Assembly (NCBI GenBank): GCA_023898465.1
Contig: CP060223.1
Coordinates: 512,001-576,000 of the forward strand
Direction of reading: 5' to 3'
Source of the DNA: Candidatus Nomurabacteria bacterium
Lineage (GTDB): Bacteria; Patescibacteriota; Patescibacteriia; HK-STAS-PATE-3
DNA: 64,000 bases
The translations under genes were made by a program, and so were the position numbers. Below are positions 10,746-52,575 of the stretch, in pieces. A model generated the notes under the pieces. That model did no database searches, had not been told where the DNA came from, and was given only the letters and a program-made list of their open reading frames with translations. Every line of letters begins with the position of its first letter. Within the stretch, counting starts at the first letter, position 1.

Positions 10746-11528
10746 TTAAGGCCGGAGAGTACCGGAAAACATTTGCCAGGCTAGAGCTGATTTCGCCACC
10801 AGGGACAAAATCATATAGGCCTTTTCACCGTAGAGATAGTCCTGCCATTTCCCTATCTTCTTATACTGCAGGACCATGTTAATCGCGAAGATGTTAAAGG
10901 TGACAAAGATGGTGGCCACAATGAAATAAACAAAGGTAGGAATCTCCACTCCGGTCGACTGTACCGCGCCAATGAAGAAAGCAACAATGACCAGCCAGGG
11001 AATTAAGCCAGCCAAAACTCCTATCCAGTACGAAAGCCAATTCGTATGCTTGGTCGTCTGATTATGTACTTCCATCATCAAGCCCATGAGATTCATAATC
11101 GCATTCAAGGCAAACAGCGAAATGAGTAGCCAAAGATCGTACACACCACAAAGCATGGCAATAACTACAATCATAACTGACGAGGATAAGGCATACTCAG
11201 CCCAACGCAGCTTGTTGATGCCCTTTTTCAAATTCTCCTCATACCATTCCCGCAAAGGTCCGGCTAGAAGGAAATGCGCAAAAGCAGAAAGGAAGAGAAA
11301 GACCGCTACGGTGGGGCCTAAGCGTAAGTCAAACAAATGCTCAGGAAGTGGAGCTACACCAAAAACTGGATTATTTGGATCGATTTTCAGGTATGAAGTA
11401 ACAACTGGTAAAGATGAATTATTGCTTATCAAAACCATAATGACGCCTTGCACGAAGTGAAGGGCGGCCATTGACCAATTCCAGACTTGTAGTTTTTTTA
11501 ACTGCTCTTTTTGACTACGCATTTTCAT
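10746..11528 (-). CDS. Heliorhodopsin
   Basis: 260 aa, 7 TM. Close motif-level match (from memory) to heliorhodopsin 48C12: LQVWNWSMAALHFVQ vs LQNFNRIAGVFHLLQ; RWAEYALSSSVMIVVIAMLCG vs RWVEYSLSSSVMIVLIAQICG; GEKAYMILSLVAKSALAWQMFSGTL vs GERAYIVLSLVAKSALAWQIFSGTL. This includes the TM7 Schiff-base Lys (SLVAKS), the counterion Glu (RWAEY) and both conserved His. Confidence 0.85.
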   Translation of the reverse strand: MKMRSQKEQLKKLQVWNWSMAALHFVQGVIMVLISNNSSLPVVTSYLKIDPNNPVFGVAPLPEHLFDLRLGPTVAVFLFLSAFAHFLLAGPLREWYEENLKKGINKLRWAEYALSSSVMIVVIAMLCGVYDLWLLISLFALNAIMNLMGLMMEVHNQTTKHTNWLSYWIGVLAGLIPWLVIVAFFIGAVQSTGVEIPTFVYFIVATIFVTFNIFAINMVLQYKKIGKWQDYLYGEKAYMILSLVAKSALAWQMFSGTLRP

Positions 11529-17500: not shown

Positions 17501-19943
17501 CTCTAATTAAGGTAGTGGTGCTATAGGTCCCATCGATTTGGGCTTTTGCGTTCCAGCTTGCACTATATTCAGTGTAATTAGTTTCATCGATGTCTTTAGG
17601 ATCGGTTGCCCCGGATGATAGCCCTGTGGTCACGTTAAACCAATCAAGGCCATTATTTAACGAATATTCAAAACTCGGGGTCACCTGTCCTGAGCCAGAG
17701 CTGCCATCTGGGTCACGAACTGAGTAAGTGATAAGCACGCTACCATCACTGCTTTGCTGGGTAGCTGTTGGTGCGCCCTCAAACTCAGGCGGTGCATTTA
17801 CCACATACACCATAGTTGCATCATACAGTGTTGGCGCCGCATAACCGTTTGAAGACTCTAGCCATACCTTATACTGCATCCACTGATCATTCGTACTATC
17901 GGTATGAGTGCTATTCACCGTCTCTCCGCCACTTGGATCAGTATAATAATCCCCTGTGCCGCTAGGACCAAGCCAGCTTGACCAAGTACCAGGAGATCCT
18001 GAGCTATCTGGAGCGGTCCGAATCTGAAATTTGATTTCAGTACCACTCGGTAGATTTTCTGTCCAGCGCATACCCCCCAGCGCATTTAATGCATCGGTGC
18101 TATCAAAAGCAGATGAGGTCAGTGTTTGTGATGATGGGTATTGTTGATAACCGATGCTAATGTCTTCAAAGTGCGGCGAAGCACTAGTATCACTCGTCGA
18201 CATACTCACTCGATATTGAATGTATTGCTCACCATCCGTGACGCAAGCGTCAGAACTAATATCATTCCCGCTCGTTAAATTACCGCATCCGGACCAATCA
18301 GGTGCTCCACTCATGCCTGAATCATTTGAGGTACGAGCCTGAACAGTTAAAGTGGTGCTTCCTGGAACGGTAGCATTCCAACTTAAGGTATCAAAAACAG
18401 TGTTTCCGTTTGTATTAAGTGCCGCTGAGGTGAAAGTGCCCGGTGTAAGATAGGTTGAAGGAATATTAATGGCTAATCCGCTTGCACCATCAGCCATATA
18501 GCTAGTGGTGCCTGATTGCAACACATGTTTTCCGAGCGCGGTAAGTGCGGTGCTGCTCACTTCTGATGGAGAGGTTGGATTGCTCACATCAAGCACTTTT
18601 AAGCTTGCGTCATCAATAATGTACAAGTCTGTGCCTACCGCCTCTACTGAACGCACATCAGTCAAACCTGTACTATAAGCCCCTATGCGAACCGGGACAG
18701 ATGGATTACTAATATCAATAATAGTGACACCAACCGAGGAGTCTGCGGTATATGCGTAGCTACCTACTATAGCTACATCATATCCTTCATCAAAGGCTTC
18801 AAAATCATACGAATATCCTCGTACACCGCTAATAGAACCCGGGGTTCCAATATTGTATATGTTTAAACTCGCAGCCTCTCCGTAATCATCGTACCCAACC
18901 CCATATAAGTAATCACCATCAGCAACCAGGCGATACGGTCTTGCTTGATATGAAACGTTTGACGCACTGAGACTTGGGTTTACCGGATCCGCCAAAGACA
19001 ACACATAAATGCGCATCACACGACAAAAACCTGAACAACCTCCTACTGCAAAACCGGCATACAAATATGATCCACGAAGGTATACGCTGTACACCTCTCC
19101 CGTGCTTGTATATTGCCCTACTAAGCTCGGCGCATTTTTGTTGCTAATATCCACTACACGAACATCACCGGTATAGTCAGCAAGATACGCATAGTTGCCT
19201 GAAACGGTAACGTCTCGCGCGTCGTTTGTGTCGACACTACCAAGGGGCTGAGGTGATAAAGGATTCGAAATATCAAAAATTTTCAAACCATCAACGCCAT
19301 CGGCAATATAGGCATAATTACCGTCGACAAAAACTCCTTTTGCGTCAGTGGTGTCGGAATAGGCAGTGCCACCACTTGATTGGGCCAACTCAACATAGGC
19401 CCCACTTCCCGATCCCGTGACTTGAGTGCTACTCGTGGTACCTGTACCAAAATCAGCATCACTCGTTTGCACGAGAGACTGCGACGTGGTAGTTAAGCTT
19501 AGTTCCGTGCCAATGTTAAGGTTTGCATCAGCTGCTGAGTACTCATTCCAACCTGTCTGATCACCTGGATGCTGAGCAGTATTTGCAGTTTGACCACCGC
19601 TCCAGTCTGTCTGCACCCAATAATAAGTGGCCGCTCGAGAGGAACCAATAGTGAGAGCCCAAAATGTCACGCTAATGAGTAAAACAGACGAAATAATTGC
19701 TCCTGCGTAACGTCGAGAACTTTTAAAAGGCTTTATTACCTTTTGCGCTACCTTTTTATTACGTTTTAAGGAAATGGCAAGTACCCATCCAAAATATAAT
19801 GGGATAAACGCGGTATAAGGACGCTGCTTCTTGCGTTTCGCGCGAAGAAGCGTTGTTTTTTTCTGTAAGCTGGCTGATAAAGAAAATATTCCGAAACCAG
19901 CTCTTTTTGGGGGGCTTTTTTTCGCCGACCTTTTTTTGGTCAC
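14523..19943 (-). CDS. Giant (1806 aa) cell-surface protein with LVIVD beta-propeller repeats and multiple Ig/FN3-like beta-sandwich repeats
   Basis: N-terminal basic region plus a TM anchor (AGAIISSVLLISVTFWALTIG). LVIVD-repeat signature (GNYAYIADGVDGLKIFDISNPLSPQPLGS ... VSGNYAYLADYTGDVRVVDISN). A long Ser/Thr-rich region with repeated roughly 90-aa beta-sandwich-like units (YTVYRSTDG..., TTYYFRVRSED..., TTYHYQVRS...). GTG start at 19943. Confidence 0.8.
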   Translation of the reverse strand: MTKKRSAKKSPPKRAGFGIFSLSASLQKKTTLLRAKRKKQRPYTAFIPLYFGWVLAISLKRNKKVAQKVIKPFKSSRRYAGAIISSVLLISVTFWALTIGSSRAATYYWVQTDWSGGQTANTAQHPGDQTGWNEYSAADANLNIGTELSLTTTSQSLVQTSDADFGTGTTSSTQVTGSGSGAYVELAQSSGGTAYSDTTDAKGVFVDGNYAYIADGVDGLKIFDISNPLSPQPLGSVDTNDARDVTVSGNYAYLADYTGDVRVVDISNKNAPSLVGQYTSTGEVYSVYLRGSYLYAGFAVGGCSGFCRVMRIYVLSLADPVNPSLSASNVSYQARPYRLVADGDYLYGVGYDDYGEAASLNIYNIGTPGSISGVRGYSYDFEAFDEGYDVAIVGSYAYTADSSVGVTIIDISNPSVPVRIGAYSTGLTDVRSVEAVGTDLYIIDDASLKVLDVSNPTSPSEVSSTALTALGKHVLQSGTTSYMADGASGLAINIPSTYLTPGTFTSAALNTNGNTVFDTLSWNATVPGSTTLTVQARTSNDSGMSGAPDWSGCGNLTSGNDISSDACVTDGEQYIQYRVSMSTSDTSASPHFEDISIGYQQYPSSQTLTSSAFDSTDALNALGGMRWTENLPSGTEIKFQIRTAPDSSGSPGTWSSWLGPSGTGDYYTDPSGGETVNSTHTDSTNDQWMQYKVWLESSNGYAAPTLYDATMVYVVNAPPEFEGAPTATQQSSDGSVLITYSVRDPDGSSGSGQVTPSFEYSLNNGLDWFNVTTGLSSGATDPKDIDETNYTEYSASWNAKAQIDGTYSTTTLIRVTIDDGELANNTASDETSAFTLDVKDPVLGSPAIVVDARTDPASLDLSGSDDSSLEMQVSLRSDFVGATWVSYASSSTISLVTDPDTVYVRFRDAYKNTSSSASAVTPETPTTVIIRDISNVEADAYQLFISWKAVALPDPGFSEYTVYRSTDGTSYSTISHISDRAINYYLDQSVTADTSYWYKISSEDSDGNFSYYSAVVSESANGQGGTDSTPPTISNVATSQIGTQTVTITWETDELSDSTIGYSDTPADFGTTIGVATLMDNEAGVGVHRVILTGLDPSTTYYFRVRSEDPGGNSATDSDGGDGYTVTTLSGPAISNVSTQEVSNTEASISWLTDVESDSHVFYSVNSDMSDAIEVGLDTPPTMNHLVKLSGLTNGTLYYYYVTSGVAFDNNGGEYYSFVTTSDTVPPVLSNIQADPVIDTRAVVTWLSNERATSQLRYGTSSGNYTVTTSLDESLNLTHLVTLSNLSPKTTYYYTVSSVDASGNSTTSTEKSFSTLEMLSEESDVEQREQDAIDGSKDETNPSITGIEVVNISDSAATVRWTTSEEANSFIQFGLTTVYGTIYGDWTYATSHSLTLQQLNSGSTYHYRVISVDASGNTSITGDKTFTTSGTAPIDRNNPDEIKNILEENLDLLNDLYGNVSIDILELSLEEQYQLIEELSKIIPTPLISGEPRVDVGPTSVTIQWRTDKDSNALVAYASDADFALAQQYTQVVGDAETYSTTHSVTVYNLQPDTTYHYQVRSRTKISQTTQSADFSFTTDPQVFDIQNYAVEKISSEEAVFRWTTTRDADATVRVIPYRNNIKAVDELSSVRDDTQTIIHQVTVDSFESGVTYAIELVSVDADGNTVSKTLDSFVTGDENAPPLISQIQTDSALSPGRDTKVQTIISWLTNEPATSRVYYRQGVASADEAITEATPLDTNYTKRHVVVLTSFEPGSVYQFKVESTDSSGQTSVSEPLTILTPQQEQTVVQVILGSVQDLFGWLNLF

Positions 19944-29721: not shown

Positions 29722-30996
29722 CTAAAATCTTGCTAATCTTGGCGAATTATCATGCAATACTGTGCTTGCTGCAATAGTTTTACGGAAGCCCACTCGCTCT
29801 TGCGCATGCTTCCGTACATTCCACATTGCTCCCCAACGCAACATATACGCACCATAACGCTCATGCACTCGATCAATCACTGCTTCAACAGCATCGTGAT
29901 TTACCTCGGGCCAAATCTTGAGCTGACCGCTCCTTGGGCGTAAGCGAAAAGTGCCTATGCCTAAAAAAGTAAGGAAGCGTCCATGAACTTCTGGTGCTAA
30001 CATATCCCAGGCCAATTGAAAAAGCTTTCGCCCTTCGCGTAGCCCATCACCTAACTTACGCTGTCCACCGTGTGAAGCGCCTTCAGCCATACGGGTATAT
30101 TCACTTGGCACACTGCGAGCCATTGCCCAGATGCCATGGGCTTCTAAGTTCTTCTGGCGCAATTCCCGAGCAGTCTTTTCGCAAAGCTTCATCAACACCG
30201 CTCGGTGAAAAGTGTGATCGCGCGTACGTTCACGCAAGACATGCGTATGTCCAATTGACTTCGGGTCTCGCTCCTCCTGCACACCGCCTAATTCAATCCC
30301 TTGCACATTTGCCCAGAGCTCATAGCCACGCACTCCGAGAGCCTCCATTAGATTAGTAACTGGATAGCGATAAAGATCCTCGAGAGTAAAAATACCTAAA
30401 GCATGCAGGCGACGTTCATAGCCCTTATTAATCCCCCAAGCCTCAGTCACTGGTCGGCCGGCCAAGTAGCTTGGCACCTGGCGCCGCTCAAGCACAACCG
30501 TCCCACCCTTTGGCGCAATATCAGAGGCGAACTTAGCTAACCAGCGAGTTGGTGCTACCCCAATGGAACACCGCAGCCACTCGCCCACCTCGCGAAAAAT
30601 ACGCTGACGAAAAGCCTCACCTATCTTCGCCACTTCATCAAGTGAATGGGCGTCACCAGTGAAATCAACAAAAGCCTCGTCAATTGAGTAAGGCTCGATA
30701 TCCTCAGAGTACTCAGCCATGATACGAAAAATTGCTTCAGTGGTGGAATGATACTTTGGTGGATCAACCTCTACCACCTTCAGGGCAGGATAAATGTGCA
30801 AACCATCCTTCACCCGCATACCAGTCACAATGCCTAACGCTTTTGCTTCTCGTGAAGTGGCAATCATGCAGCCTCCCGGCGCCATGGTGGCGGCAATGCC
30901 GACCGGCCGACCTCGCAACTTCGGATTCGCCTGCTGCTCGACTGAGGCGAAATACGAGTTCATATCGAAATGGAGAATGAGGCGAGAATGAGACAT
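29722..30996 (-). CDS. dinB: Y-family DNA polymerase IV
   Basis: N-terminal ILHFDMNSYFASVEQ and conserved palm/finger motifs (SIDEAFVDFTG, the catalytic D/E region). 424 aa. Confidence 0.85.
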   Translation of the reverse strand: MSHSRLILHFDMNSYFASVEQQANPKLRGRPVGIAATMAPGGCMIATSREAKALGIVTGMRVKDGLHIYPALKVVEVDPPKYHSTTEAIFRIMAEYSEDIEPYSIDEAFVDFTGDAHSLDEVAKIGEAFRQRIFREVGEWLRCSIGVAPTRWLAKFASDIAPKGGTVVLERRQVPSYLAGRPVTEAWGINKGYERRLHALGIFTLEDLYRYPVTNLMEALGVRGYELWANVQGIELGGVQEERDPKSIGHTHVLRERTRDHTFHRAVLMKLCEKTARELRQKNLEAHGIWAMARSVPSEYTRMAEGASHGGQRKLGDGLREGRKLFQLAWDMLAPEVHGRFLTFLGIGTFRLRPRSGQLKIWPEVNHDAVEAVIDRVHERYGAYMLRWGAMWNVRKHAQERVGFRKTIAASTVLHDNSPRLARF

Positions 30997-32111: not shown

Positions 32112-32281
32112 GGCTTTTTCGCTTTTACTTACCTTTCTAGTATAACCGAAGAAAAACCGAAAGTCAACCCCGAGTGCAAACGAGGAGGGTGACTTTCGTC
32201 TCGCCCTTGCCTATCCCCCGCCTTTGCTCTAGGCTACACTGCAGACCTTTGCTCTTTACCGTCCTGACCAAAGGAGGCACT

Positions 32282-32680
32282 ATGGTCATCGGAAACGTCG
32301 GAGCAGCGCTACTGCACCAACGTCATGGTGTCCGAGTCTTTCTCTATGTTTTGCATGCAACGCGAAAGTGCGTGATCGTGCCACTGCAAACCGAGTCAGC
32401 CATCCTCACCACGGCCGAAGTTCCAACGGTCATTAGGAGAGTCCTGGAAGTCGAAACCAGCCTCACGAAGGGTGCGGCTAGCTTCAGTCTACTTCTCCGC
32501 TCTCGCCGAAACCCTGATCGTCTGGAAACCTGGGATATCGAAAATCCTGAAGGAGATATCACCTTCAAGCCCGGAGCTACAGCAACGGAAGTCACCAACC
32601 GTGTGAGAACAGCGATCATGGCACACCAAGATCGGGAACGCGTGTTTCCCGAGCTCGAACAATCTACCACCGCGGCCTAG
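32282..32680 (+). CDS. Hypothetical protein
   Basis: ATG at 32282 preceded by an AAAGGAGG Shine-Dalgarno. 132 aa. No domain recognised. Confidence 0.4.
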   Translation: MVIGNVGAALLHQRHGVRVFLYVLHATRKCVIVPLQTESAILTTAEVPTVIRRVLEVETSLTKGAASFSLLLRSRRNPDRLETWDIENPEGDITFKPGATATEVTNRVRTAIMAHQDRERVFPELEQSTTAA

Positions 32681-32695
32681 TGCTGCGGTGGCTTC

Positions 32696-34465
32696 TTATG
32701 TAAATTTGATAACCTGCCCAGGTTGAAGAGACTTACCTGATTGCGTCTGTGGCTGACTATGTTTCTCTTGTGCCTGAACAGACTTTGACTGCTCAGCTTG
32801 CTTCGGAGTATTTTTGGCTGGCTGACTCTTTTCCTGAGGTTGCTTCTTCTTAGGCTTCGCTGTGAATTGCACAGGACCTTTACTCAGCGCCTCGTGTAAG
32901 CTAATTTCTTTTGGTGGCTCAGGAGCTACTTCACGCAACTGCTCAGGCTCAGGTGCCGTTTGTGTAAAATTCGGTCGATCGTTTCTTCCCTGCTCTCGCT
33001 CATTGCGTGGACGGGAGCTGTTTTGATTACCTTGAGGATTTGGTTGACGATTTCGGTCATTCCCGCCTGATCGTTGTCGAGATCCGCCGCCTTGATTTTG
33101 ACGCGGTCCACTTCCCCCTCGACGATCATTTCCACCCCTATTACCGCCGCTACGATTTCCGCCACCCTGGGAACCCTGTCCGAGGAAGATTTCATCAACT
33201 CCAGTCCATCGGCGGATTTTATCTTCTACAATCTCTCGCTTCTTAGCATAGCGCTCACGTGACACCTCAATCACTTTTTGCCCATTACCGGTTGGACCGC
33301 TCACTGGCTCCAGAGTTGTAGCGGAAAAAGGCTCAGAAGCTACTCCATCAATCATTAAGCGGAGATAAATATCGTACTTGGTCAGGTTTACTAAATCAGT
33401 CTCAGTGAAGGTGGGATCAAACTCTTTAGCCAAAAACTCTGCATCAGCGGCACCAACACGGAAACACACGATCGATCCGACGTTGCCAAAAACAGCCGCG
33501 CGAACTTGCTCATCTAACTGCTCAATATACTGGTGAGCCATGATAAGATTTAAGCGATACTTACGCGCCTCTGACAAAATGTTGGCAAAGCTCTCAGTGG
33601 CAAAGTTTTGAAATTCGTCAACATAGAGGAAAAAATCTTTACGATCTTTTTCCGCAATGTCTACGCGACTCATGGCCGCCAACTGAATCTTGGTAATCAT
33701 CATACCACCCAGCAAAGCTGCATTATCTTCACCAATACGGCCTTTGGAAAGGTTCAGTAAGACAATCTTTTGCTCGTCCATCAATTGCCGCAAATCAAAA
33801 GTACTCTTCGGCTGGCCAATGATATTACGAATCATTGATGAGGAAAGAAATTGACCAATCTTGTTTTGGATAGGTGAAACAGCTTCGGTACGGAATTGGT
33901 TAGCGTATTGGCCGAATTCCTCATGCCAGAAAGCCTTCACAATAGGATCAGTTAGCTTCTCCACCACTTTTGATCGATAGTCGTTGTCGACGAGAATACG
34001 AGGAATACCCAAAAGTGTTGACCCAGGATACTCAATCAAGGAGAGAATACTATTGCGCAAAATGTATTCCAATCGAGGTCCCCATGAGTCGCTCCACATT
34101 TTTTTAAACACCGAAACAAGACCCGAGGCTACTAAGTGGCGGTGGGCAGGGTTTACACTTTCTAAGACGTTGAAGGCTACCGGATAATCTACATCAGCCG
34201 GATTAATATACACCACATCATTAATTCGATGTGAAGGAATGTAATCTAAAATCTTTTCCACAAAGTCACCGTGCGGATCAATCACAGCTAAGCCATGACC
34301 AGCTCGCACATCCTGGATCATCATATTTTCAAGCACCGTCGTCTTACCCATACCGGTCTTACCGATAAAGTACATGTGACGGCGTCGATCATCTATTCTA
34401 ATACCAAAGCGCCGCTGCTGATTGCGGAAATTCGTTTTAGCAAAAAAATTAATATCTTCACTCAT
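32696..34465 (-). CDS. VirD4/TraG/TraD-family type IV coupling-protein-like P-loop ATPase with a Gly/Arg/Gln-rich C-terminal tail
   Basis: Walker A GKTGMGKTT. Walker B plus TraG-D_C-like segment LYVDEFQNF...ARKYRLNLIMAHQYIEQL. The C-terminal roughly 170 aa are low complexity (GGNRSGGNRGGNDRRGGSGPRQNQGGG...). Confidence 0.7.
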   Translation of the reverse strand: MSEDINFFAKTNFRNQQRRFGIRIDDRRRHMYFIGKTGMGKTTVLENMMIQDVRAGHGLAVIDPHGDFVEKILDYIPSHRINDVVYINPADVDYPVAFNVLESVNPAHRHLVASGLVSVFKKMWSDSWGPRLEYILRNSILSLIEYPGSTLLGIPRILVDNDYRSKVVEKLTDPIVKAFWHEEFGQYANQFRTEAVSPIQNKIGQFLSSSMIRNIIGQPKSTFDLRQLMDEQKIVLLNLSKGRIGEDNAALLGGMMITKIQLAAMSRVDIAEKDRKDFFLYVDEFQNFATESFANILSEARKYRLNLIMAHQYIEQLDEQVRAAVFGNVGSIVCFRVGAADAEFLAKEFDPTFTETDLVNLTKYDIYLRLMIDGVASEPFSATTLEPVSGPTGNGQKVIEVSRERYAKKREIVEDKIRRWTGVDEIFLGQGSQGGGNRSGGNRGGNDRRGGSGPRQNQGGGSRQRSGGNDRNRQPNPQGNQNSSRPRNEREQGRNDRPNFTQTAPEPEQLREVAPEPPKEISLHEALSKGPVQFTAKPKKKQPQEKSQPAKNTPKQAEQSKSVQAQEKHSQPQTQSGKSLQPGQVIKFT

Positions 34466-34468
34466 GGA

Positions 34469-35887
34469 TTATATTGGGAGATTACTGGGCGGTTGATCCT
34501 TTTCCTCGGCGTCCGAACTGAGCACCTCTTGATCAGGGTCCACCGGCACGGACTGAACTTGCTTTGCTCGACGAATTGGCACCACTTCAACTGGTAAACT
34601 GCTTGGAGGTTCAGCGCGGCGAGCTTCTGTCTTCTGCACTAATGGAGCTTTCACGTTCACTACTGGGAAGTGATAAATGGTGGCAAGCTCTTCAATGTTC
34701 AGCACATAGGGATCAGCACCGGTCGACATGTCACGATTTTGGAAGGCTCGTAAAATTCGCTTCTTCTTAGTGGCAATCCGTTTTTCTTTACCCAAGTATT
34801 TTGCTTTTGGCTTTGTCTTCTTATCGACTTTGAAGCCATTCATGTCCAGGGTATTAAATTGCTTTAAGGCTCCGGTAATACCTGGCACGCGATCCTTGGA
34901 AAAAGAATCGCCTTCGCCTAAGTATACAATACGCATTTTACAATCGAAATAGAGCTTGGCGGTCTTGTACGAAATCGCTTCAATAACTGCTTTATCGTTT
35001 GGCGTTAAGTGACTCATGATAGAAGCCTCTTTTGAATCCGAGGATTCCTCTTTACCAAAAGGACTGACAAGGTCAGCGGTAAAGGTTTCAGTCAAGCCAC
35101 TGGCAACCTGTTTTGGTAGCCAAAGCACATTATCAAGCAAGCCTCCACCACCTCCACTTGATCCATAGGTTGCCTTAGCGAGCTTCTTAATAATTCCCCG
35201 AGCTCCATCCAGCCACGAATCATCATCTGGTGGCACAATCATTGTCTGAATCCAAAGCTGCTCACCTGGTCGTAAGCGGCTCATATATTCAAGCAGTGAT
35301 GCCATCGGATCAAGCAGCTGCTGCGTCATCGTATGCTCAAAAGCCGGATAGGTGCGGATCGGGTAATAATCCTTTTGACGCAACACAATATCCGCTCCCC
35401 AGAGATCGTACTCTTCGTTTGGAAACTGGGCGACAAACTGCTGGGTGTAGTCCTCTACTTCGCTAATTTCCGCGTCTGGATACTGTGCGTAAAAAGCCGA
35501 CTCAACTAAATCACGATATTGAATAGGAATCCGCACGAGATATTGGATAAAGCCGCCGATGCTGATAATTTCAAAGCTGAGCGGTGGCTGAAACTCTCCC
35601 TTAATATTTTTTTCGTACCAGGAGGGTGCTGACTCAACACCATGGATGTGCGCAAAAGCTGACTCGAGCGCCTTCGGTGTCTGCTCAGTTTCACGTGGTA
35701 CATCAATCGCTAAAATGACGTACTCAATAGTAGACGCAAAACGCTCCTGGGCGTAACCAGTCCATAGCTTGAAGCCTCCCCAAAACAACGCAACGATAAT
35801 AATAAGCCAGCCGCCATGTGTAAAGAGAAACCAGGTGATGGCGAAAGGGTTAGAAAATTCGCTGAGGAAGGAAAAATCAATTGTCAT
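34469..35887 (-). CDS. Hypothetical membrane protein, conserved partner immediately upstream of the VirD4-like ATPase
   Basis: 472 aa with an N-terminal TM (WFLFTHGGWLIIIVALFWGGF) and a Gly run (SSGGGGGLL). Its stop lies 4 nt from the ATPase start. Confidence 0.55.
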   Translation of the reverse strand: MTIDFSFLSEFSNPFAITWFLFTHGGWLIIIVALFWGGFKLWTGYAQERFASTIEYVILAIDVPRETEQTPKALESAFAHIHGVESAPSWYEKNIKGEFQPPLSFEIISIGGFIQYLVRIPIQYRDLVESAFYAQYPDAEISEVEDYTQQFVAQFPNEEYDLWGADIVLRQKDYYPIRTYPAFEHTMTQQLLDPMASLLEYMSRLRPGEQLWIQTMIVPPDDDSWLDGARGIIKKLAKATYGSSGGGGGLLDNVLWLPKQVASGLTETFTADLVSPFGKEESSDSKEASIMSHLTPNDKAVIEAISYKTAKLYFDCKMRIVYLGEGDSFSKDRVPGITGALKQFNTLDMNGFKVDKKTKPKAKYLGKEKRIATKKKRILRAFQNRDMSTGADPYVLNIEELATIYHFPVVNVKAPLVQKTEARRAEPPSSLPVEVVPIRRAKQVQSVPVDPDQEVLSSDAEEKDQPPSNLPI

Positions 35888-35920: not shown

Positions 35921-37066
35921 CTAGGCTGTGGGTATTTCGGGTGGTGTTTGCGTTAAGGTATAGTCCCCGTTATCTAATCGAGTAAACATTTGTCGATTGG
36001 TCAGCGCCAAATGAATGGTGTTCTTTTTCACGACACGCTGAGAAAGCACCTCAGCAACCAGTGCTTCTCGGCTCATCGGCTCACCTTTTTTGCGAAGAAT
36101 GTCAGCTAACACTTCAGCTACCACACCTTCTTTGTAGCCCCACTCGCGCAAGGCATAAATTCCACGGCCAACTAACACATATTCCTTATTGAGAATCAGC
36201 TCATTATGCACGGTCGGCGGATATGCTTTACGAGGATCAAAGCCGGCGGTATTAATCCGCTTTGCAATTTCAGTGAAGTGAAGAGGTTGGCCCTCTTTCT
36301 TTAGGATAAGGTAAATCTTATCATTCATACGACGAGGAGAAATGCTTCCCCAGCTCGTCAAACCATATTCGTCAAAAGGATTGCGTCCTAAATCCTTACC
36401 CAGCTGCAAGGCTGAATGCAACATATCATCTGACAACGCATGCTCATGAATTTTTGCAAACTCTGTCTGGCGAAACTCTTGGAGTAAGTCTGGCAACTCA
36501 ACCGGGTGTCCGATCTTGGTAACCACGCTGACTAACTCACGAACAGTCTGTCGCAAGAGATCGAGTCCGGCACCCTTTAGTTTCCAGGCCCGGCGCATTG
36601 TTTCGCTCTCAGGCATCAATTCAACAGTATCTTTTAGTAATTCACTCAAGACAAAAATAACCGCTCGGCGATTCATGTCGCTTGGACCAGAAAAGCTGAG
36701 TAAGTGTTCGAGGAGCGCTTCCTCTTCCATAATGCCGCCCCGAGCAGTCAGCGTGGTAGTCAAAAGCTGCTGCACCTGGTGCATTACCTGATCAAAGACC
36801 TTGGCTCGGCGGATTTTCTTTACCGCAGTTCCCTCAATCTGGCGAATACGCTCACGAGTAACCTGATAAAGCGCACCAATCTCTTCTAGGGTCTGCGTTT
36901 CTTTGCCGCTTAAACCGTGTCGGCGACGTAAAATATCCTCTTCCTTTCCTGTTAGCTCTTTGAGTAACAAAGAAATGGTTTCAGAGGGGTTAAATTGCTC
37001 CATATCAGTTTGCTGCTTGGAGCTGAGGATTTTGTCCAAAATTGAGTTGGACTCGTTTGTATCCAT
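35921..37066 (-). CDS. Sigma-70 region-4-type HTH domain protein fused to a large C-terminal domain (putative transcription regulator)
   Basis: N-terminal LEEIGALYQVTRERIRQIEGTAVKKIRR is a region-4 HTH. The remaining roughly 300 aa have no recognised domain. ATG at 37064-37066. Confidence 0.55.
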   Translation of the reverse strand: MDTNESNSILDKILSSKQQTDMEQFNPSETISLLLKELTGKEEDILRRRHGLSGKETQTLEEIGALYQVTRERIRQIEGTAVKKIRRAKVFDQVMHQVQQLLTTTLTARGGIMEEEALLEHLLSFSGPSDMNRRAVIFVLSELLKDTVELMPESETMRRAWKLKGAGLDLLRQTVRELVSVVTKIGHPVELPDLLQEFRQTEFAKIHEHALSDDMLHSALQLGKDLGRNPFDEYGLTSWGSISPRRMNDKIYLILKKEGQPLHFTEIAKRINTAGFDPRKAYPPTVHNELILNKEYVLVGRGIYALREWGYKEGVVAEVLADILRKKGEPMSREALVAEVLSQRVVKKNTIHLALTNRQMFTRLDNGDYTLTQTPPEIPTA

Positions 37067-37100
37067 TGACGTATTGCTTACAATCAAGCGTACTAACGAT

Positions 37101-37129
37101 AATATAGCACATTAGCAAAAATATGTCAA
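37101..37129 (-). promoter_or_regulatory. Sigma70-like promoter (minus strand) TTGACA-N17-TATATT upstream of the region-4 HTH gene
   Basis: Reverse complement of 37124-37129 is TTGACA and of 37101-37106 is TATATT, with a 17-nt spacer. Confidence 0.35.
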
Positions 37130-37177: not shown

Positions 37178-38089
37178 TTAACGAAAGCGTCGCGCTCGCC
37201 AATTATGCCACTCAACCAATAACGTGCTGGCAATGAAAATTGAGGAGTAAGTTCCCACGATAATACCCGCAATCAGCGCTATCACAAACATACGAATTGA
37301 CTCTCCTCCCAGTACCGCCAGAGCAACTAATACAAACAATGTCGTCATCGAGGTATTAATAGAGCGCGACATGGTCTCATTAATACTCCGGTTAGCGATT
37401 TCTTCAAAAGGCTCATTATGATAACGCTGGATACCCTCACGAATACGATCAAAAACAACAATGGTATCGTGCACTGAGAATCCTAGCACCGTAAGTAAAG
37501 CTGTTACAAAAAGTGAATCAACCTCTGTGCCAAATATCTGACCAAAGAGCACAAAGAGACCTACGATAATAGAAATATCATGAATCAATGCAACAATCGC
37601 GCCAACGCCAAATACCCAACTGGGCACCGGTCCGCCACGAGAAATCTTACGGAAGGCCCAAGTGATATACGCGATGATACCTATGAGAACTAAAGCAATG
37701 GCTGAATACGCTTTCTTGCGCAACTCTTGACCAATACTCGGTCCAATCGCAGTAAATGAATCTTCACTCACCTGCTCTTCTTGTAAAGCGCTTAAGGCAT
37801 CTAGGACTGATTGGCGCTCGTCATTGCTTAAGGCGCGTGTTTTTAGGATGAGGCTTTTTTCGTTAGAAGGAACTGCTTGATAAGAACCCAGGTCTAGAGG
37901 ATTCAATGCGTCTTGTATCGTCGAAAGTTCTGGACGAAGTTCTGGGAAGCTTATCTCCAATCGAGAACCGCCAGTGAAATCAATACCAGGCTTCAAGCCC
38001 CAAATCAAAGCACCGACAATAGAGGCCACAACAAGTATCGCGGAAATGATAGTAAAATATTTTCGCTTTTGGATAATCTTTAGCGTCAT
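37178..38089 (-). CDS. secF: Protein translocase subunit SecF
   Basis: SecF-type N-terminus (IIQKRKYFTIISAILVVASIVG...GIDFTGG) and a 6-TM SecDF C-domain. Its ATG at 38087-38089 overlaps the secD TGA (ATGA). Confidence 0.85.
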   Translation of the reverse strand: MTLKIIQKRKYFTIISAILVVASIVGALIWGLKPGIDFTGGSRLEISFPELRPELSTIQDALNPLDLGSYQAVPSNEKSLILKTRALSNDERQSVLDALSALQEEQVSEDSFTAIGPSIGQELRKKAYSAIALVLIGIIAYITWAFRKISRGGPVPSWVFGVGAIVALIHDISIIVGLFVLFGQIFGTEVDSLFVTALLTVLGFSVHDTIVVFDRIREGIQRYHNEPFEEIANRSINETMSRSINTSMTTLFVLVALAVLGGESIRMFVIALIAGIIVGTYSSIFIASTLLVEWHNWRARRFR

Positions 38090-39750
38090 ACTTGTTCCTT
38101 CTTCCGTACTCCATACAGCCAGGCCACACTCACCCATCGTTGAGTGAGACGTAAGAATGTGCGCGTAACTACAATGGCTGAAAACATACTTACTAAAATA
38201 CCAATCGCTAAGGTAATCGCGAATCCTTTAATGATACTTGTACCAAACCAGGCCAAGATAAAAGTGGTAATTAAACTTGAAATGTTTGAATCGCGAATAG
38301 ACAACCAAGCGCGTCGGAAACCCTCTTCAATCGCTTGATTAAGTGGTCGACCTTCACGCAACTCTTCTTTCATGCGTTCAAAAATAAGCACGTTTGCGTC
38401 TACTGCCATTCCGATGGAAAGAATAAATCCAGCAATTCCAGCTAGAGTCAAAGTCACTGGCCAGAGAATAAAGATGGCAAAAACTACGGCGGAGTATACC
38501 CCTAAAGCCAAAACTGAGATAAGGCCAGGCAAGCGATAATAGAGAATCATAAAGAGCGCAACTAAGCCGAGCCCAATTATGCCAGCAACAAAACTAGACT
38601 GCACTGAACGCTCACCAAGGGTTGGTCCTACATTCTGTTGAGAAACAAGCGTAATTGGTACTGGCAGTGCACCAGCATTTAAATTACGAGCTAAGTCTCG
38701 CGCTTCTTGCAAGGTAAAATCACCTGAGATAACCGCTTCTCCACTCGTGATAGCCTGCTGAACTGTTGGTAAGCTTAATGGGAAGCCATCTAAATAAATA
38801 GCCACCACCTTGCCAACATTGCGCTCAGTAATTTCTTTAAAAAGCTGTGTACCCTCGCTATTGAAATTCAAACTAATCTCTGGAGTATTGGTAGTTTGAT
38901 CAAACACGACTGAAGCTCGTTCCAAATCCTTACCCGATAGCCCAGTTGCCACAAAATCGGTTGAGGGTTCAGTTGACTGCAGTATAAAAAGAATATGACT
39001 ACCTTGAACTTCTCGCACATCTTGCCCATCTTGATTCGCTGTACGCTCGTCGGTCTTCTTAATAATATGCAGACCGAATTGCGATTCAACCAGCTCCGGA
39101 TACACCTGCCCGACCGCTAAATCACCGAAGAGAACGTCATCGAATTCTTGCACGAAAGTGCCTTGTTGCGCAAAACCGAGATCGCCCCCATTATCTTTAC
39201 TACCCGGATCTTCGGAATAGAGTTGGGCCAATTGAGCAAAATCAGCGTCAGGTTGAAGCGCTTGTGCTAATACGTCTTGTGCTTTTTTTCGCACTTCTTC
39301 GTTTTGCGCCTCTATGGCTGCTGGATCCTCTGGTGTGGTCTCAATCTGTTCACGAAATTCTAAGGTTGGAGTTTGACCAATCTGCGCGATTGCCTGGTTC
39401 ACGTCAGTGACACCTGGTAATTCAATCGAGACTCGCCATTGATCGCCAGCCTTTTGCGTTTGGACAACTGGCTCGGATACACCAAAGGCATTCACTCGAC
39501 GCTCAATAACATCGCGAACACCTTCTACAGCGTCTTGCGCCTCAGCTGGAGCTACTTGCGATAGATCAGCGTCATAGAGCAATGACACGCCGCCTTGCAA
39601 ATCCAAACCCAGCTGAACAGGTAAATCAATAGTCCAGTCTACTGGCCCTACGTGAATCCGGATTGGTTTTTGATAGTCAATGGTACCAGCTAGCAGGGTG
39701 AGCAATAGAATCCCGGCAAAACTGAGCCAAACTTTCTTCCGTACGGTCAT
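38086..39750 (-). CDS. secD: Protein translocase subunit SecD
   Basis: GLDLQGG motif, a periplasmic P1 domain and a C-terminal 6-TM domain. 554 aa. Confidence 0.9.
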   Translation of the reverse strand: MTVRKKVWLSFAGILLLTLLAGTIDYQKPIRIHVGPVDWTIDLPVQLGLDLQGGVSLLYDADLSQVAPAEAQDAVEGVRDVIERRVNAFGVSEPVVQTQKAGDQWRVSIELPGVTDVNQAIAQIGQTPTLEFREQIETTPEDPAAIEAQNEEVRKKAQDVLAQALQPDADFAQLAQLYSEDPGSKDNGGDLGFAQQGTFVQEFDDVLFGDLAVGQVYPELVESQFGLHIIKKTDERTANQDGQDVREVQGSHILFILQSTEPSTDFVATGLSGKDLERASVVFDQTTNTPEISLNFNSEGTQLFKEITERNVGKVVAIYLDGFPLSLPTVQQAITSGEAVISGDFTLQEARDLARNLNAGALPVPITLVSQQNVGPTLGERSVQSSFVAGIIGLGLVALFMILYYRLPGLISVLALGVYSAVVFAIFILWPVTLTLAGIAGFILSIGMAVDANVLIFERMKEELREGRPLNQAIEEGFRRAWLSIRDSNISSLITTFILAWFGTSIIKGFAITLAIGILVSMFSAIVVTRTFLRLTQRWVSVAWLYGVRKKEQV

Positions 39751-39870: not shown

Positions 39871-41292
39871 TTAATCCTGCACTACCACTTTGGTTCCTAT
39901 TGGCGCCCACTCATACACCCACTTTGCATTCGATTCTGAGATATTAATGCAGCCATGGCTCATAGGATGACCAAAGTTATTATGCCAATACGCGGTGTGC
40001 AGATAGTAATGTGGAGTGAAATTAAGATTCCACTTCACGTCCTTAATATCGTAGTTGTCCGGATGCTGCGGGCCGTAGGTCCACTCATAGTCCATGACCG
40101 GCACTTTGCGATAAATCGCGAACTCACCTTTTGGTGAAGGATAGCGCGCTACTCCGCTGGAGATGAGGAAGCTATTTTGGAGGACTCCATCGTCATAGGC
40201 ATATAAGCGCTGCTCAGAAAGATCCACCACAATGCGTTTCCCTACCTGATCCACACTTGCAACGACCAAGCGATTTGGCCCAGTCACAATTTCGTCTTCA
40301 CCATCTGCATCAATATCGCCAGCGGCAATGAAGAGGCCGCCACGGAAATCTCCACTATAGGCAAAGAAGTCGCGCAGGTATTCGCCCTGCGCAGTGAAGG
40401 CACGTACGTGTGGTCCACCGTTTCCATTGGCTGCTACGAGTAATTCATCGCGACCATCAAAATCTAAATCCGCTCCAGCAATATTTACCCCACCACGGAA
40501 CGCTAGCGGAAAGGCGATGAACTCACTAATGATAGGGCGATCTGGTGCTACGTCATATACCTTCACCCAAGCATGGCCAAAGCGATGCAGCGCGAAAAGA
40601 ATTTCGTCATCACCATCACCATTCACATCCGCAGTAGCCACACTTAACCCGCCGCGTTCGTATTTTGCAAATGGCCAAAAGTCCAGACCTTGATATTCAC
40701 CATCAAGTGAAAAAAGTCTAGCTTGGTTTCCGCTATCAAAACCCGAAGCAGTAATAATCATACCAGTGCCGCTACCATTGAGATCGCCACAAGCAACAGT
40801 AACTCCGCCACGAAAAGCGCTGTCGTAGGCCATGAAGCTAGAAAGCTCCTCGCCTTCCATGGTGTAGACCTTCACATTTGGTCCGCCGCCGCGACGTGGA
40901 CCGGTCACGATTTCTGCAATACCGTCATTATTCAAATCACAACTCGCCACGTAAATACCTTTTCGGAACGCATCCATATACGCATAGAAGCTGCTGAGCT
41001 TTACTCCCTCGCTCGTGAAGACTTGCACGTTTGGTCCGCCGCCTGGACCCGCTCCCACAATTATTTCATCTTTACCATCTCCGTTTACATCTCCAGTCGC
41101 TACGCTTGCTCCACCTTGAAAGGCTTCAGTGAAACCGTAAAACTGATTTACCTGACTAAAGTGCGTATCAAAAATTCTTATCTCAGGTGAAAGAGAGAGC
41201 TGCACTGCCTGAGCGCCTGAAACAAAAAACACCCCGAAGAGGAGCGTCGTTATGAGTAAGGTATACTTCTGAGCTAGAAAATACTTTTGCAT
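39871..41292 (-). CDS. FG-GAP repeat protein with C-terminal L,D-transpeptidase (YkuD) catalytic domain
   Basis: Repeated D-x-N-x-D-G-x-D-E-I FG-GAP/VCBS calcium-binding motifs (ATGDVNGDGKDEIIVGAG, CDLNNDGIAEIV, ADVNGDGDDEILF, GDIDADGEDEIV). The C-terminus carries an SHGCINI active-site motif. Start at the ATG at 41290-41292 (MQKYF...) with a signal peptide. Confidence 0.75.
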   Translation of the reverse strand: MQKYFLAQKYTLLITTLLFGVFFVSGAQAVQLSLSPEIRIFDTHFSQVNQFYGFTEAFQGGASVATGDVNGDGKDEIIVGAGPGGGPNVQVFTSEGVKLSSFYAYMDAFRKGIYVASCDLNNDGIAEIVTGPRRGGGPNVKVYTMEGEELSSFMAYDSAFRGGVTVACGDLNGSGTGMIITASGFDSGNQARLFSLDGEYQGLDFWPFAKYERGGLSVATADVNGDGDDEILFALHRFGHAWVKVYDVAPDRPIISEFIAFPLAFRGGVNIAGADLDFDGRDELLVAANGNGGPHVRAFTAQGEYLRDFFAYSGDFRGGLFIAAGDIDADGEDEIVTGPNRLVVASVDQVGKRIVVDLSEQRLYAYDDGVLQNSFLISSGVARYPSPKGEFAIYRKVPVMDYEWTYGPQHPDNYDIKDVKWNLNFTPHYYLHTAYWHNNFGHPMSHGCINISESNAKWVYEWAPIGTKVVVQD

Positions 41293-41298
41293 TTGTTT

Positions 41299-41424
41299 GT
41301 CTTTCCAAAAGAAAAGGGAGAACGGGTGAGGAATCAATTTGGACTCGCTAGAAAGCTAGTAAACCCGAAGTGATTCCTCACCCGATAAGACTCTTTTTGT
41401 GTCTCTTTTTGTTTTTGGAAAGAG
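41299..41424. repeat. Long nested inverted repeat (about 125 bp) in the divergent ldt/sodN intergenic region
   Basis: Perfect 14-bp arms CGGGTGAGGAATCA (41323-41336) / TGATTCCTCACCCG (41371-41384) around a 34-nt centre containing GCTAGAAAGCTAG. Outer arms GTCTTTCCAAAAG (41299-41311) / CTTTTGGAAAGAG (41413-41424) extend the structure. Confidence 0.5.
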
Positions 41425-41533: not shown

Positions 41534-41986
41534 ATGAAGAAAAAAATTAAGAGCATTTTCTCTAAAGTACTATTTGGCGAGGAGGCTTCGGCCCACTGTG
41601 ATGGACCTTGTGGAGTATACGATGGTGCCTCCGCGGAAATTGCCGCGCGAGCAGCAGTGAGCATGACTAAGAAGCTCCTTGAGCTCACAACGCCCACTCC
41701 GCAATCAAGTCCAGAAGATAAACTCAACTACCACCACACCGTTGCCCGCTATACACTGATCAAAGAGGAGCAAAGTGAAATTGCCAAGCGCGAACTTCTC
41801 ATACTCTGGACTGATTTTTTCAAACCAGAGCATCTCGATGCTTTTCCTGATTTGCATGAGTTCATTTGGAAGCTTGCCAAACAGTGTTCATATGTGAAGC
41901 AGCACGTTGATCTCGAAGCAGCTGAAAAAATGCACGCTGATATCATGAAGCTGGCTGAGATGCATCATCAGGCCTCTCACCACTAA
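41534..41986 (+). CDS. sodN: Nickel-containing superoxide dismutase precursor
   Basis: Ni-hook motif HCDGPCGVYD immediately after a 20-aa N-terminal propeptide (MKKKIKSIFSKVLFGEEASA). Four-helix-bundle length (150 aa). Confidence 0.9.
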   Translation: MKKKIKSIFSKVLFGEEASAHCDGPCGVYDGASAEIAARAAVSMTKKLLELTTPTPQSSPEDKLNYHHTVARYTLIKEEQSEIAKRELLILWTDFFKPEHLDAFPDLHEFIWKLAKQCSYVKQHVDLEAAEKMHADIMKLAEMHHQASHH

Positions 41987-52071: not shown

Positions 52072-52494
52072 TCAACGAGGATTGACCGGCTGCTTGGGCG
52101 AAGACTTGGGCTTCGAAGAAGGCTTTTTGTCCACTCCATTGGACCGAGGCCTTCTCGACTTTCCGGTCCTTGTGGACGGCAGTCTGAAAGCTTCTTTCAC
52201 TCGCCCCGCCGCCAATTCCAGCTTGCTGGGCTTGGCAGACGAGCTATTCACCTCGGGTGCTTGCTTGGCGTCAGCGAAGTTCTGTGCGACCTCGCCATGA
52301 GCTTGAGCTGAAACACCGGATGCCCGACGATTCTCATCGCGCACCCGATCGTAGATCTCTTCCCGGTGGACAGCGACATTCTTCGGCGCATCAACGCCAA
52401 TCTTGACCTGTCCACCCTTCACATCCAGGATGATGATCTTGACCCGATCACCTACCCGGATATTCTCCCCCAACTTCCTTGTCAAAATGAGCAT
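52072..52494 (-). CDS. csrA: Carbon storage regulator CsrA with roughly 75-aa basic Lys/Pro/Ser-rich C-terminal extension
   Basis: [51 protein letters not shown] is a canonical CsrA core. The ORF continues for about 75 more codons. GC-rich. Confidence 0.75.
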
Positions 52495-52575
52495 GACTCT
52501 TGTACTCCATTGCTTGGCTGTGTGGCCATCCTTGGTTTCTCGGGCGCCAAAAACGCCCTCCTGTTGCAAACGGAG

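Follow-up and report, generated by a model that had tools for sequence, protein, structure and literature searches.

What does a coupling-protein-like ATPase do in a bacterial chromosome when no conjugation genes surround it? Two adjacent open reading frames (ORFs) of a Candidatus Nomurabacteria bacterium (Patescibacteriota) raise this question. They lie in a 64,000-nucleotide stretch of DNA (GenBank assembly GCA_023898465.1, contig CP060223.1, positions 512,001 to 576,000), referred to below as the window. An initial annotation, made from the sequence, had described them as a pair formed by an ATPase related to the type IV coupling proteins (T4CPs) and a membrane protein, here called the partner. 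Both ORFs stand on the minus strand where that annotation had put them, and they are closely adjacent as claimed, although 3 nt (TCC), and not 4 nt, lie between the stop codon TAA of the partner and the start codon ATG of the ATPase. We regard it as near certain, as far as structure and evolution are concerned, that partner and ATPase are not two different proteins but the halves of one membrane-anchored coupling-type protein. The whole explanation, in which this split, membrane-tethered T4CP-like protein would hand nucleic acid to or from a channel, has in our judgment a probability of roughly 0.55.

The evidence that the two genes make up one protein comes from homologues that are single chains. 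By BLASTP, aa 5-433 of the partner correspond to aa 1-371 of a 916-aa Candidatus Saccharimonas protein (P0406; 31% identity, E 3e-52) and aa 1-417 of the ATPase to aa 378-795 of the same chain (50% identity, E 4e-149), and because this alignment is collinear we read the two ORFs as one split protein. A search with one fused protein as query returned 120 Saccharimonadia proteins of 909-991 aa, all with PF26449 followed by PF10412, and single-chain homologues of 780-1050 aa that join DUF8128, the partner's domain, to TrwB_AAD_bind are the commoner form in Patescibacteria. Metagenome contigs were scanned for the ATPase motif DEFQNFAT, which gave 80 loci that were then searched with partner and ATPase profiles. 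The fused form, with the partner domain first and the ATPase directly after it in one ORF, was present at 39 of these loci and the two adjacent genes at 11, and the ATPase stood without the partner at 28, about half of them truncated by a contig end. One fused gene is already in the literature: SEML1_0293 of Ca. Southlakia epibionticum encodes a 921-aa 'T4SS DNA-binding domain-containing protein' (T4SS, type IV secretion system) with T4CP domains from residue 402, and it lies directly downstream of a gene with Sigma70_r4 and HARE-HTH domains (PMC10633639).

The position of the split can be read from the sequences themselves. The junction of the fused proteins, '...KTAEPPxKLPvltgd...ISAFGxTNFRG...', corresponds to the EPPSSLP motif of the partner followed by the N-terminus of the ATPase (DINFFAKTNFRN). 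In fused homologues the EPPSSLP-type motif is thus the linker directly before the ATPase domain, and the break in the split lineage falls exactly in this linker, after 'EPPxxLP'; the split partner carries about 40 extra residues that end in a second P-P-x-N-L-P motif. When a neighbour-joining tree of ATPase cores was rooted with TrwB, fused forms occupied several deep branches and the split forms made up one derived clade, which makes gene fission the simpler reading. Most fused homologues begin with a single hydrophobic helix followed by K/R-rich sequence, and since this is the only transmembrane (TM) helix of the chain, DUF8128 must be cytoplasmic together with the ATPase.

Several variants of this architecture were met among the metagenome loci. 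At L158 an HTH (helix-turn-helix) gene and a partner gene are followed by two tandem ATPase ORFs, one of which groups with the fused forms in the tree and may be a local duplication or a second paralogue. ATPase homologues with no detectable DUF8128 gene upstream (L093, L108, L111, L139, L141, L155 and others) fall inside or near the split clade, and their upstream ORFs differ (599 aa in L093, 417 aa in L155). There is also a class of tail-less fused paralogues of about 780 aa (DUF8128 plus T4CP) that have no HTH gene upstream (L103, L126, L128, L129, L153) and sit a few genes from ribonucleotide reductases at all five loci. Pfam assigns these reductases to the B12-dependent class II in L126 and L153 and to anaerobic NrdD with its activase in L129; those of L103 and L128 were identified by phmmer with the L153 query only. 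These neighbours may hint at a link to nucleotide supply.

Both the sequence and the predicted fold of the ATPase are T4CP-like, and it stands nearer to that group than to VirB4, FtsK or HerA. The Walker A (GKTGMGKT) and Walker B (LYVDEF) motifs named in the initial annotation were found, and together with a glutamine motif (AHQYIEQ, aa 310-316) they are invariant across 25 homologues and align with the motifs of TrwB. TrwB_AAD_bind scored 48.7 bits (cut-off 20.5) over aa 25-336, a range that includes the all-alpha insert, T4SS-DNA_transf scored 28.0 bits (cut-off 20.1), and the TraG-D_C-like segment was borne out at aa 280-342 (23.5 bits, cut-off 22). DUF87, the HerA central domain, also exceeded its cut-off (28.9 bits against 23.2), a model that matches T4CP and VirB4 relatives as well. 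TrwB_AAD_bind, DUF87 and TraG-D_C each matched all 25 homologues, and FtsK_SpoIIIE matched neither the window ATPase nor any of them, so that the ATPase sorts with the T4CPs, as the initial annotation had proposed in advance, and not with FtsK/HerA. The ATPase lies far below the cut-offs of the NCBIfam equivalogs for TraD and VirD4 and therefore belongs to no named T4CP subfamily. The VirB4 model TIGR00929 gave 18.2 bits against a cut-off of 643, the CedD model NF053655 gave 32.2 bits against 600 and covered only aa 14-91, and the Pfam model CagE_TrbE_VirB matched neither ATPase nor partner.

Profile comparison led to the same placement. With TrwB and TrwK of an R388-like plasmid as references, hhalign aligned the ATPase family profile with TrwB at 94% probability over 269 columns and with TrwK, a VirB4, at 2%. 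The alignment pairs aa 22-319 with TrwB 117-393 and spans the all-alpha insert, and the AlphaFold2 (AF2) model has helices only between aa 106 and 230, with a predicted local distance difference test score (pLDDT) of 75-93; an all-alpha domain is thus inserted between Walker A and Walker B, as in T4CPs. TrwB was the only solved structure retrieved by sequence search with the ATPase, and T4CPs of effector systems (DotL, Cag-beta) rank among its best structural matches. Over 80 related loci plus the window, phmmer with TrwB as query recovered 80 ATPase ORFs and with TrwK none. Comparison with the plasmid pSK41 was less clear-cut: the probability was 5.8%, a weak value, for its T4CP TrsK and 82% for its VirB4 TrsE, the latter over just 99 C-terminal columns, and in both cases the single-sequence template limits the test. 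Homologues of the ATPase number more than 8,000. Its own chain has no hydrophobic helix (Kyte-Doolittle 19-residue maximum 1.29) and so no TM domain.

The long Gly/Arg/Gln-rich disordered tail that had been noted on the ATPase is also real. Its 162 residues contain 15% Q, 14% G, 9% R and 8% N, are in addition P/S-rich with an RGG-like stretch, carry a net charge of +14 and have pLDDT below 50 except around aa 523-528. Two short motifs are kept in the alignment of 25 homologues, ISLHEAL at aa 521-527 (ISLxEAL) and the C-terminal LQPGQVIKFT (LxPGQVxxF). In some orthologues (P0161, P0172, P0199, P0221, P0230, P0237) the tail carries a treble-clef zinc finger (PF23477), which in P0221 reads CYECGK...CPTCFK; the window tail has its RGG-like stretch in place of such a finger.

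The partner is a membrane protein, as had been claimed, but it does have a family assignment. It is 100% identical to P0001 (hypothetical protein H6760_02675), which carries a precomputed match to PF26449.1 (DUF8128), and such matches are recorded for nearly all partner homologues; a copy of Pfam that does not hold the PF26449 model gave no match even at E = 10. The family is large: a word-indexed search gave more than 2,000 homologues, and 3,129 representatives were found among sequences clustered at 50% identity. The named members listed are all from Patescibacteria or from an unclassified 'bacterium'. There is one hydrophobic helix, which serves as membrane anchor: in the AF2 model (pLDDT 74.9, predicted template modelling score 0.69) a long helix at aa 14-53 surrounds the hydrophobic core at aa 17-39. 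The model then predicts an alpha/beta fold at aa 56-239 and 288-405, interrupted by a disordered loop (240-287). The disordered C-terminal tail repeats a P-P-x-x-L-P motif, first as EPPSSLP (aa 426-432) and then, at its very end, as PPSNLPI, and E426, P427, P428, L431 and P432 are invariant among 27 homologues.

At the level of fold, the predicted structure of the partner resembles the N-terminal domain of VirB4. The 60 structural matches listed for it include no other P-loop ATPase, and the VirB4 C-terminal domain (4ag5) and TrwB are absent from them though present in the library, so the match must be to the N-terminal domain. The second-best fold match was EccE of the type VII secretion system. 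Seventeen diverse N-domains profiled against all PDB sequences gave a chance match only, and a Pfam scan of the same domains at E up to 1 gave nothing relevant. A kinship in sequence between the partner and VirB4 or TrsD was considered and dropped, as no method gave a sequence or profile signal, and the relation to VirB4 is therefore one of fold.

If the two ORFs encode one protein, they should be found together elsewhere, and the initial annotation had staked its reading beforehand on such a conserved pairing. A scan with the partner profile over one genome per GTDB species yielded more than 515 loci, of which we took 80, including Kerfeld-, Buchanan-, Uhr-, Falkow-, Magasanik- and Komeilibacteria as well as Parcubacteria. 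The ATPase gene follows the partner gene on the same strand in 77 of these 80 (median gap 4 nt), and of the three exceptions two stop at the edge of a contig. Compared with the window proteins, median identity across these species is 64% for the ATPase, 56% for SecD, 48% for SecF, 43% for the HTH protein encoded upstream and 41% for the partner, a pattern that fits a core gene under constraint, not one carried by a mobile element. A scan of IMG/VR found nothing related to the partner, and a phmmer search with TrwK found no VirB4-like ORF within 8 kb at 80 related loci. Within the window, Pfam searches of all ORFs of at least 150 aa found no relaxase, VirB4 or pilin, in agreement with the initial annotation, and no type IV pilus or competence family, integrase, mobile-element gene or T4SS transfer gene. 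We conclude that the locus is chromosomal, vertically inherited, very conserved and free of mobile-element context, and that plasmid conjugation is not the role of the pair.

The initial annotation had also reported that a sigma-region-4 HTH gene and secDF follow the pair. These genes are there, at higher coordinates and on the same strand, but they are transcriptionally upstream of it. The HTH protein matches Sigma70_r4 (2.4e-11) and HARE-HTH (2.4e-7), and its gene is directly upstream in 56 of the 70 species loci with enough sequence. secD and secF are upstream in 48 of 58 such loci of the split clade, and the order secD-secF-HTH-partner-ATPase recurs in dozens of species at a partner identity of 38-59%, within a syntenic block of at least six genes that includes an L,D-transpeptidase gene. 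The fused genes of Saccharimonadia have the HTH gene upstream as well, in the order dprA, topA, HTH, fused gene, with the dcw cluster as a further neighbour; secDF is absent from these and from other fused loci. Because the HTH gene alone persists in Saccharimonadia, its linkage is deep and that of secDF is specific to the split clade, where the secDF neighbourhood is real without being a general association; its adjacency was accordingly dropped as a functional clue. Transposon sequencing of Ca. Southlakia epibionticum ML1 found the HTH gene SEML1_0294 essential and the fused gene SEML1_0293 non-essential (PMC10633639). Judged by its domains, the HTH protein is a probable DNA- or RNA polymerase-binding partner or regulator. 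SEML1_0294 is annotated just as 'RpoS', though essential.

Relatives outside Patescibacteria tie the protein to conjugation systems of monoderm bacteria. Searches of plasmids by tblastn found ATPase relatives of 29-41% identity in Bacillus, Streptomyces, Staphylococcus and Clostridium, and also in haloarchaea, Sulfolobus and one Sulfitobacter. They also placed weak matches to the partner within Bacillaceae plasmid genes annotated as 'DUF87 domain-containing'. One such gene, on a Shouchella clausii plasmid (NZ_CP012476.1), encodes a protein of 883 aa (WP_248290882.1) that matched, in the domain order of the fused chains, the profiles of the N-domain (E 2.9e-40) and of the ATPase (E 3.4e-51). 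Its gene adjoins those for a relaxase-like Replic_Relax protein, TcpC, TcpE and a large ATP-binding protein, which make up a monoderm transfer module, and it occupies the position expected of the module's coupling protein. Because this fused homologue lies in a transfer module, we conclude that the family shares ancestry with a monoderm conjugative coupling protein. The T4SS of Patescibacteria is viewed as derived from monoderm conjugation machinery (PMC12102498), and the presence of DUF8128 plus motor in a Bacillaceae transfer module fits such an origin.

These observations suggest how the split protein might work. The ATPase would be held at the membrane, on its cytoplasmic side, by the partner, whose C-terminal PPxNLP peptide would probably replace the lost covalent link, and the complex may assemble as a ring like that of TrwB. 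The catalytic motifs of the TrwB-like motor are intact, and ATP would drive the transfer of nucleic acid, most likely DNA, to or from a membrane channel, for which a putative Patescibacteria T4SS encoded elsewhere in the genome is the most likely candidate; the HTH protein encoded upstream is a candidate DNA-recognition or regulatory partner. Such an arrangement would resemble the archaeal VirD4-like CedD, which serves the Ced DNA-import system. Support for a DNA substrate is circumstantial and comes, by analogy, from the T4CP nature of the motor. Further circumstantial links to DNA are the basic RGG-like tail in the window protein, the poly-K/R patches in the tails of Saccharimonadia and the zinc fingers in some others, the DNA-binding neighbour gene, dprA and topA nearby in Saccharimonadia, and the presence of comF, recG and radA in T4SS loci of ABY1 (PMC12102498). 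Taken alone, this functional part stands at roughly between one chance in three and one in two.

Several points weigh against the explanation as a whole. The substrate, the interaction with a T4SS and the formation of a ring are things that we infer. In Ca. Southlakia the T4SS is essential and SEML1_0293 is dispensable for epibiotic growth in the laboratory (PMC10633639), so the fused protein cannot be required for what makes that T4SS essential. The likeness of the partner to the VirB4 N-domain is one of predicted fold, and hhalign of the partner profile against TrwK and the pSK41 TrsD gave probabilities of at most 0.9%. The neighbour-joining tree carries no support values, and about 12 stand-alone ATPase homologues have no DUF8128 detectable upstream even with filters off.

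A DNA motor independent of any T4SS would suit the Southlakia result, an essential T4SS beside a dispensable fused gene. Such a motor, a ring tethered to the membrane, could draw DNA into the cell via ComEC in natural transformation, in a ComFA-like manner, or act on the chromosome at the membrane like FtsK or SftA, with the HTH protein giving recognition of sequence or direction. The scarcity of Patescibacteria T4CP homologues near virB4 (only 148 of 5,713; PMC12102498), dprA and topA 2-4 genes away in Saccharimonadia and the basic ATPase tail agree with it, and the tail-less paralogues beside ribonucleotide reductases at five loci fit nucleotide scavenging. However, one TM helix per subunit is unlikely to make a DNA pore alone, the likeness of the N-domain is to that region of VirB4 through which it docks on membrane subunits of the T4SS, and the plasmid homologue that we examined lies in a conjugation module. 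No comEC or comF lies near the pair within the window, an ftsK is annotated separately in TM7x (PMC10768705), and in Southlakia a protein of FtsK fold, SEML1_0142, is essential (PMC10633639). We therefore consider this motor unlikely, if worth keeping in view; because of the latter two proteins we gave up a narrower idea, in which the pair would stand in for an absent FtsK. A role as a helper of SecDF in protein export or membrane biogenesis has less in its favour. It would account for secD and secF upstream of the split genes, and the effector-system T4CPs among the best structural matches of the ATPase and EccE as the partner's second-best fold match point the same way, but with secDF missing at fused loci of Saccharimonadia and others the linkage is clade-specific, and the sequences give no pointer to a protein substrate, which leaves such a role very unlikely.

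That the ATPase is a HerA- or FtsK-type repair or segregation helicase or translocase, assigned to the T4CPs by mistake through their common ATPase fold, also seems to us quite improbable. DUF87 scores above its cut-off in all 25 homologues, and the window holds DNA-repair genes: dinB (29722-30996) and, at 43-45 kb, genes for a PD-(D/E)XK nuclease and for alkylation repair. Yet TrwB_AAD_bind scores higher and covers the all-alpha insert, the family profile aligns with TrwB, FtsK_SpoIIIE does not match, neither the window nor the species loci show a NurA-like nuclease gene next to it, and the repair genes are not conserved neighbours (dinB occurs in locus L001 only). An ordinary coupling protein of an integrated conjugative element, finally, is close to refuted. 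The T4CP family matches, the relaxase-like and Tcp genes beside the plasmid homologue and a slightly raised G+C content at 26-34 kb (0.49-0.53 against about 0.46) would suit it, but in all 64 kb of the window neither a relaxase nor VirB4, an integrase or any further transfer gene was found, the gene order from secD to the ATPase recurs across species, the ATPase is more conserved than SecD, and both IMG/VR and the 8-kb surroundings of the 80 loci were negative as described above.

A bolder form of the explanation that we prefer, namely the split and membrane-tethered T4CP-like protein, would take DUF8128 plus T4CP as a surviving intermediate between VirB4 and VirD4, with a VirB4-type N-domain and a VirD4-type motor. 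It would have been domesticated in Patescibacteria as a housekeeping machine for DNA import or handling that works with the pilus-bearing T4SS and the HTH protein as DNA-recognition factor, a bacterial counterpart of Ced that allows nucleotide scavenging or repair where nucleotides cannot be made. We offer this as speculation and think it rather unlikely.

Part of this picture was known: that many Patescibacteria T4CP homologues lie far from virB4 has been published (PMC12102498), and the N-domain has a Pfam DUF number. In the literature that we searched we found no mention of a relation in fold between DUF8128 and the VirB4 N-domain, of split and fused forms of one protein, of the essential sigma-region-4/HARE-HTH gene as a deeply linked neighbour or of a homologue in a Bacillaceae transfer module. 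Nor did we find the proposal, cited in the initial annotation, that standalone T4CP-like pairs act in DNA uptake or protein translocation; the nearest are a remark on exaptation (PMC12102498) and the work on archaeal CedD (PMC11823120). The T4SS of Patescibacteria has no recognised coupling protein, yet these genomes hold thousands of 'orphan' T4CP homologues, and for a specialist the existence of a partner for one of them would be no great surprise. The orphans now gain an anatomy (a single TM anchor, a DUF8128 domain like the VirB4 N-domain, a TrwB-like motor and often a basic tail), in which the natural split marks the domain boundary, and a context, consisting of a deeply conserved HTH neighbour and a link to monoderm conjugative coupling proteins. 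A vague annotation thereby becomes a set of testable questions, on docking of the N-domain to VirB3/VirB6-like subunits, on the DNA substrate and on loading by the HTH protein, and testing is possible because the fused gene can be dispensed with in Ca. Southlakia, a relative open to genetics. Should the N-domain prove a true homologue of the VirB4 N-domain, the family would also bear on how VirB4 and VirD4 diverged.

The features of the locus are collected in the table below. The promoter-like site lies 14 nt 5' of the HTH ORF and, with 11 of 12 consensus matches, is the best of 10 sites in the scan; shuffled sequence yields 11.1 sites, which makes it weak evidence alone, and it is possibly the start of a three-gene transcript. 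The hairpin sits between the ATPase stop codon and a convergent ORF (32174-32680) and, as a pattern match only, is a possible bidirectional terminator.

Features of the split coupling-protein locus, in window coordinates
Feature	Position	Strand	Basis
T4CP-like ATPase ORF, 589 aa	32696-34465	minus	ORF calls
ATPase core, aa 1-427 (nucleotide-binding and all-alpha domains)	33185..34465	minus	Pfam, hhalign, BLASTP
Walker A GKTGMGKT, aa 35-42	34340-34363	minus	sequence motif
Walker B LYVDEF, aa 280-285	33611-33628	minus	sequence motif
Disordered basic ATPase tail, aa 428-589	32699..33184	minus	composition, pLDDT
Partner ORF, 472 aa	34469-35887	minus	ORF calls
Partner TM helix (predicted), aa 17-39	35771..35839	minus	Kyte-Doolittle 19-residue mean 1.93 at aa 17
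Partner cytoplasmic folded domain (predicted), aa 56-405	34673..35722	minus	AF2
Partner disordered C-terminal tail, aa 411-472	34472..34657	minus	pLDDT <50
Sigma-70 region 4 + HARE-HTH gene, 388 aa from TTG start	35921-37087	minus	Pfam
secF	37178-38137	minus	Pfam
secD with peptidyl-prolyl isomerase insert	38086-39750	minus	Pfam
Promoter-like site TTGACA-17-TATATT with TG extension	37101..37129	minus	consensus scan
G+C-rich hairpin, 10-bp stem, 8 G-C pairs	32667..32691		terminator-like scan

Other genes of the window deserve mention in their own right. Within SecD, a PpiC-type peptidyl-prolyl isomerase domain (Rotamase, aa 144-235) is inserted after the first periplasmic segment and before the P1 head, and the secD ORF shares 52 nt with the ORF called as secF. 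A gene at 39871-41337 (minus strand) encodes an L,D-transpeptidase (YkuD) joined to FG-GAP repeats and forms part of the block that is conserved, at 16 related species loci, upstream of secD. Farther away are a full-length heliorhodopsin gene (10746-11528, minus; Pfam Heliorhodopsin E 2.1e-98), here in a small Patescibacteria genome, and a gene (14523-19943, minus) whose 1,806-aa product combines LVIVD repeats with several purple-acid-phosphatase-N/fibronectin-III domains and is probably a large surface protein. A CsrA-domain ORF (52072-52569, minus; 165 aa as listed, domain at aa 26-77) is either much longer than usual or has a later start codon, and a nickel superoxide dismutase gene lies at 41534-41986 on the plus strand. 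No tRNA or Rfam family was found in the window.

Compared with known systems, the window protein is nearest in its motor to the TrwB/VirD4 T4CPs, with which it shares a P-loop domain that has an all-alpha insert between Walker A and Walker B. Those proteins have a two-helix N-terminal membrane domain, which the window ATPase chain lacks; its anchor is on a separate chain, together with a DUF8128 domain of about 350 aa, and is fused to the motor in relatives. The window ATPase also differs in having a basic and not an acidic tail, and its gene is chromosomal, vertically inherited and unusually conserved, with no relaxase or T4SS nearby. The fused Saccharimonadia proteins, such as SEML1_0293, are orthologous to the pair and have the same HTH gene upstream, but are single chains of 909-991 aa with poly-K/R tail patches and with dprA-topA and dcw neighbours. 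The Shouchella clausii homologue has the same fused architecture and differs in having no N-terminal TM helix and an acidic tail. In relation to VirB4 (TrwK), the ATPase half is T4CP-like and not VirB4-like, and the likeness of the N-domain comes with no similarity of sequence or profile.

A separate protein encoded just upstream of an ATPase gene is also known from TrsD of pGO1/pSK41 and its Patescibacteria homologues beside virB4, and TrsD has been described as remotely similar to the N-terminal part of VirB4 (PMC12102498). It differs from the partner in having 227 aa and in preceding a VirB4 rather than a T4CP, and hhalign gave the comparison a probability of 0.1%. The Patescibacteria T4CP homologues, 5,713 in 2,918 genomes, of which 148 lie near virB4, have been suggested, where far from it, to be perhaps exapted (PMC12102498). 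The archaeal CedD/TedD of the Ced system offers a parallel: it is a chromosomal, non-conjugative VirD4-like ATPase encoded apart from its own system, is required for DNA import and in some orthologues has no TM domain (PMC11823120). CedD is archaeal, has no DUF8128 and, through NF053655, only a weak match to the window ATPase, so that the parallel would be a functional analogy only.

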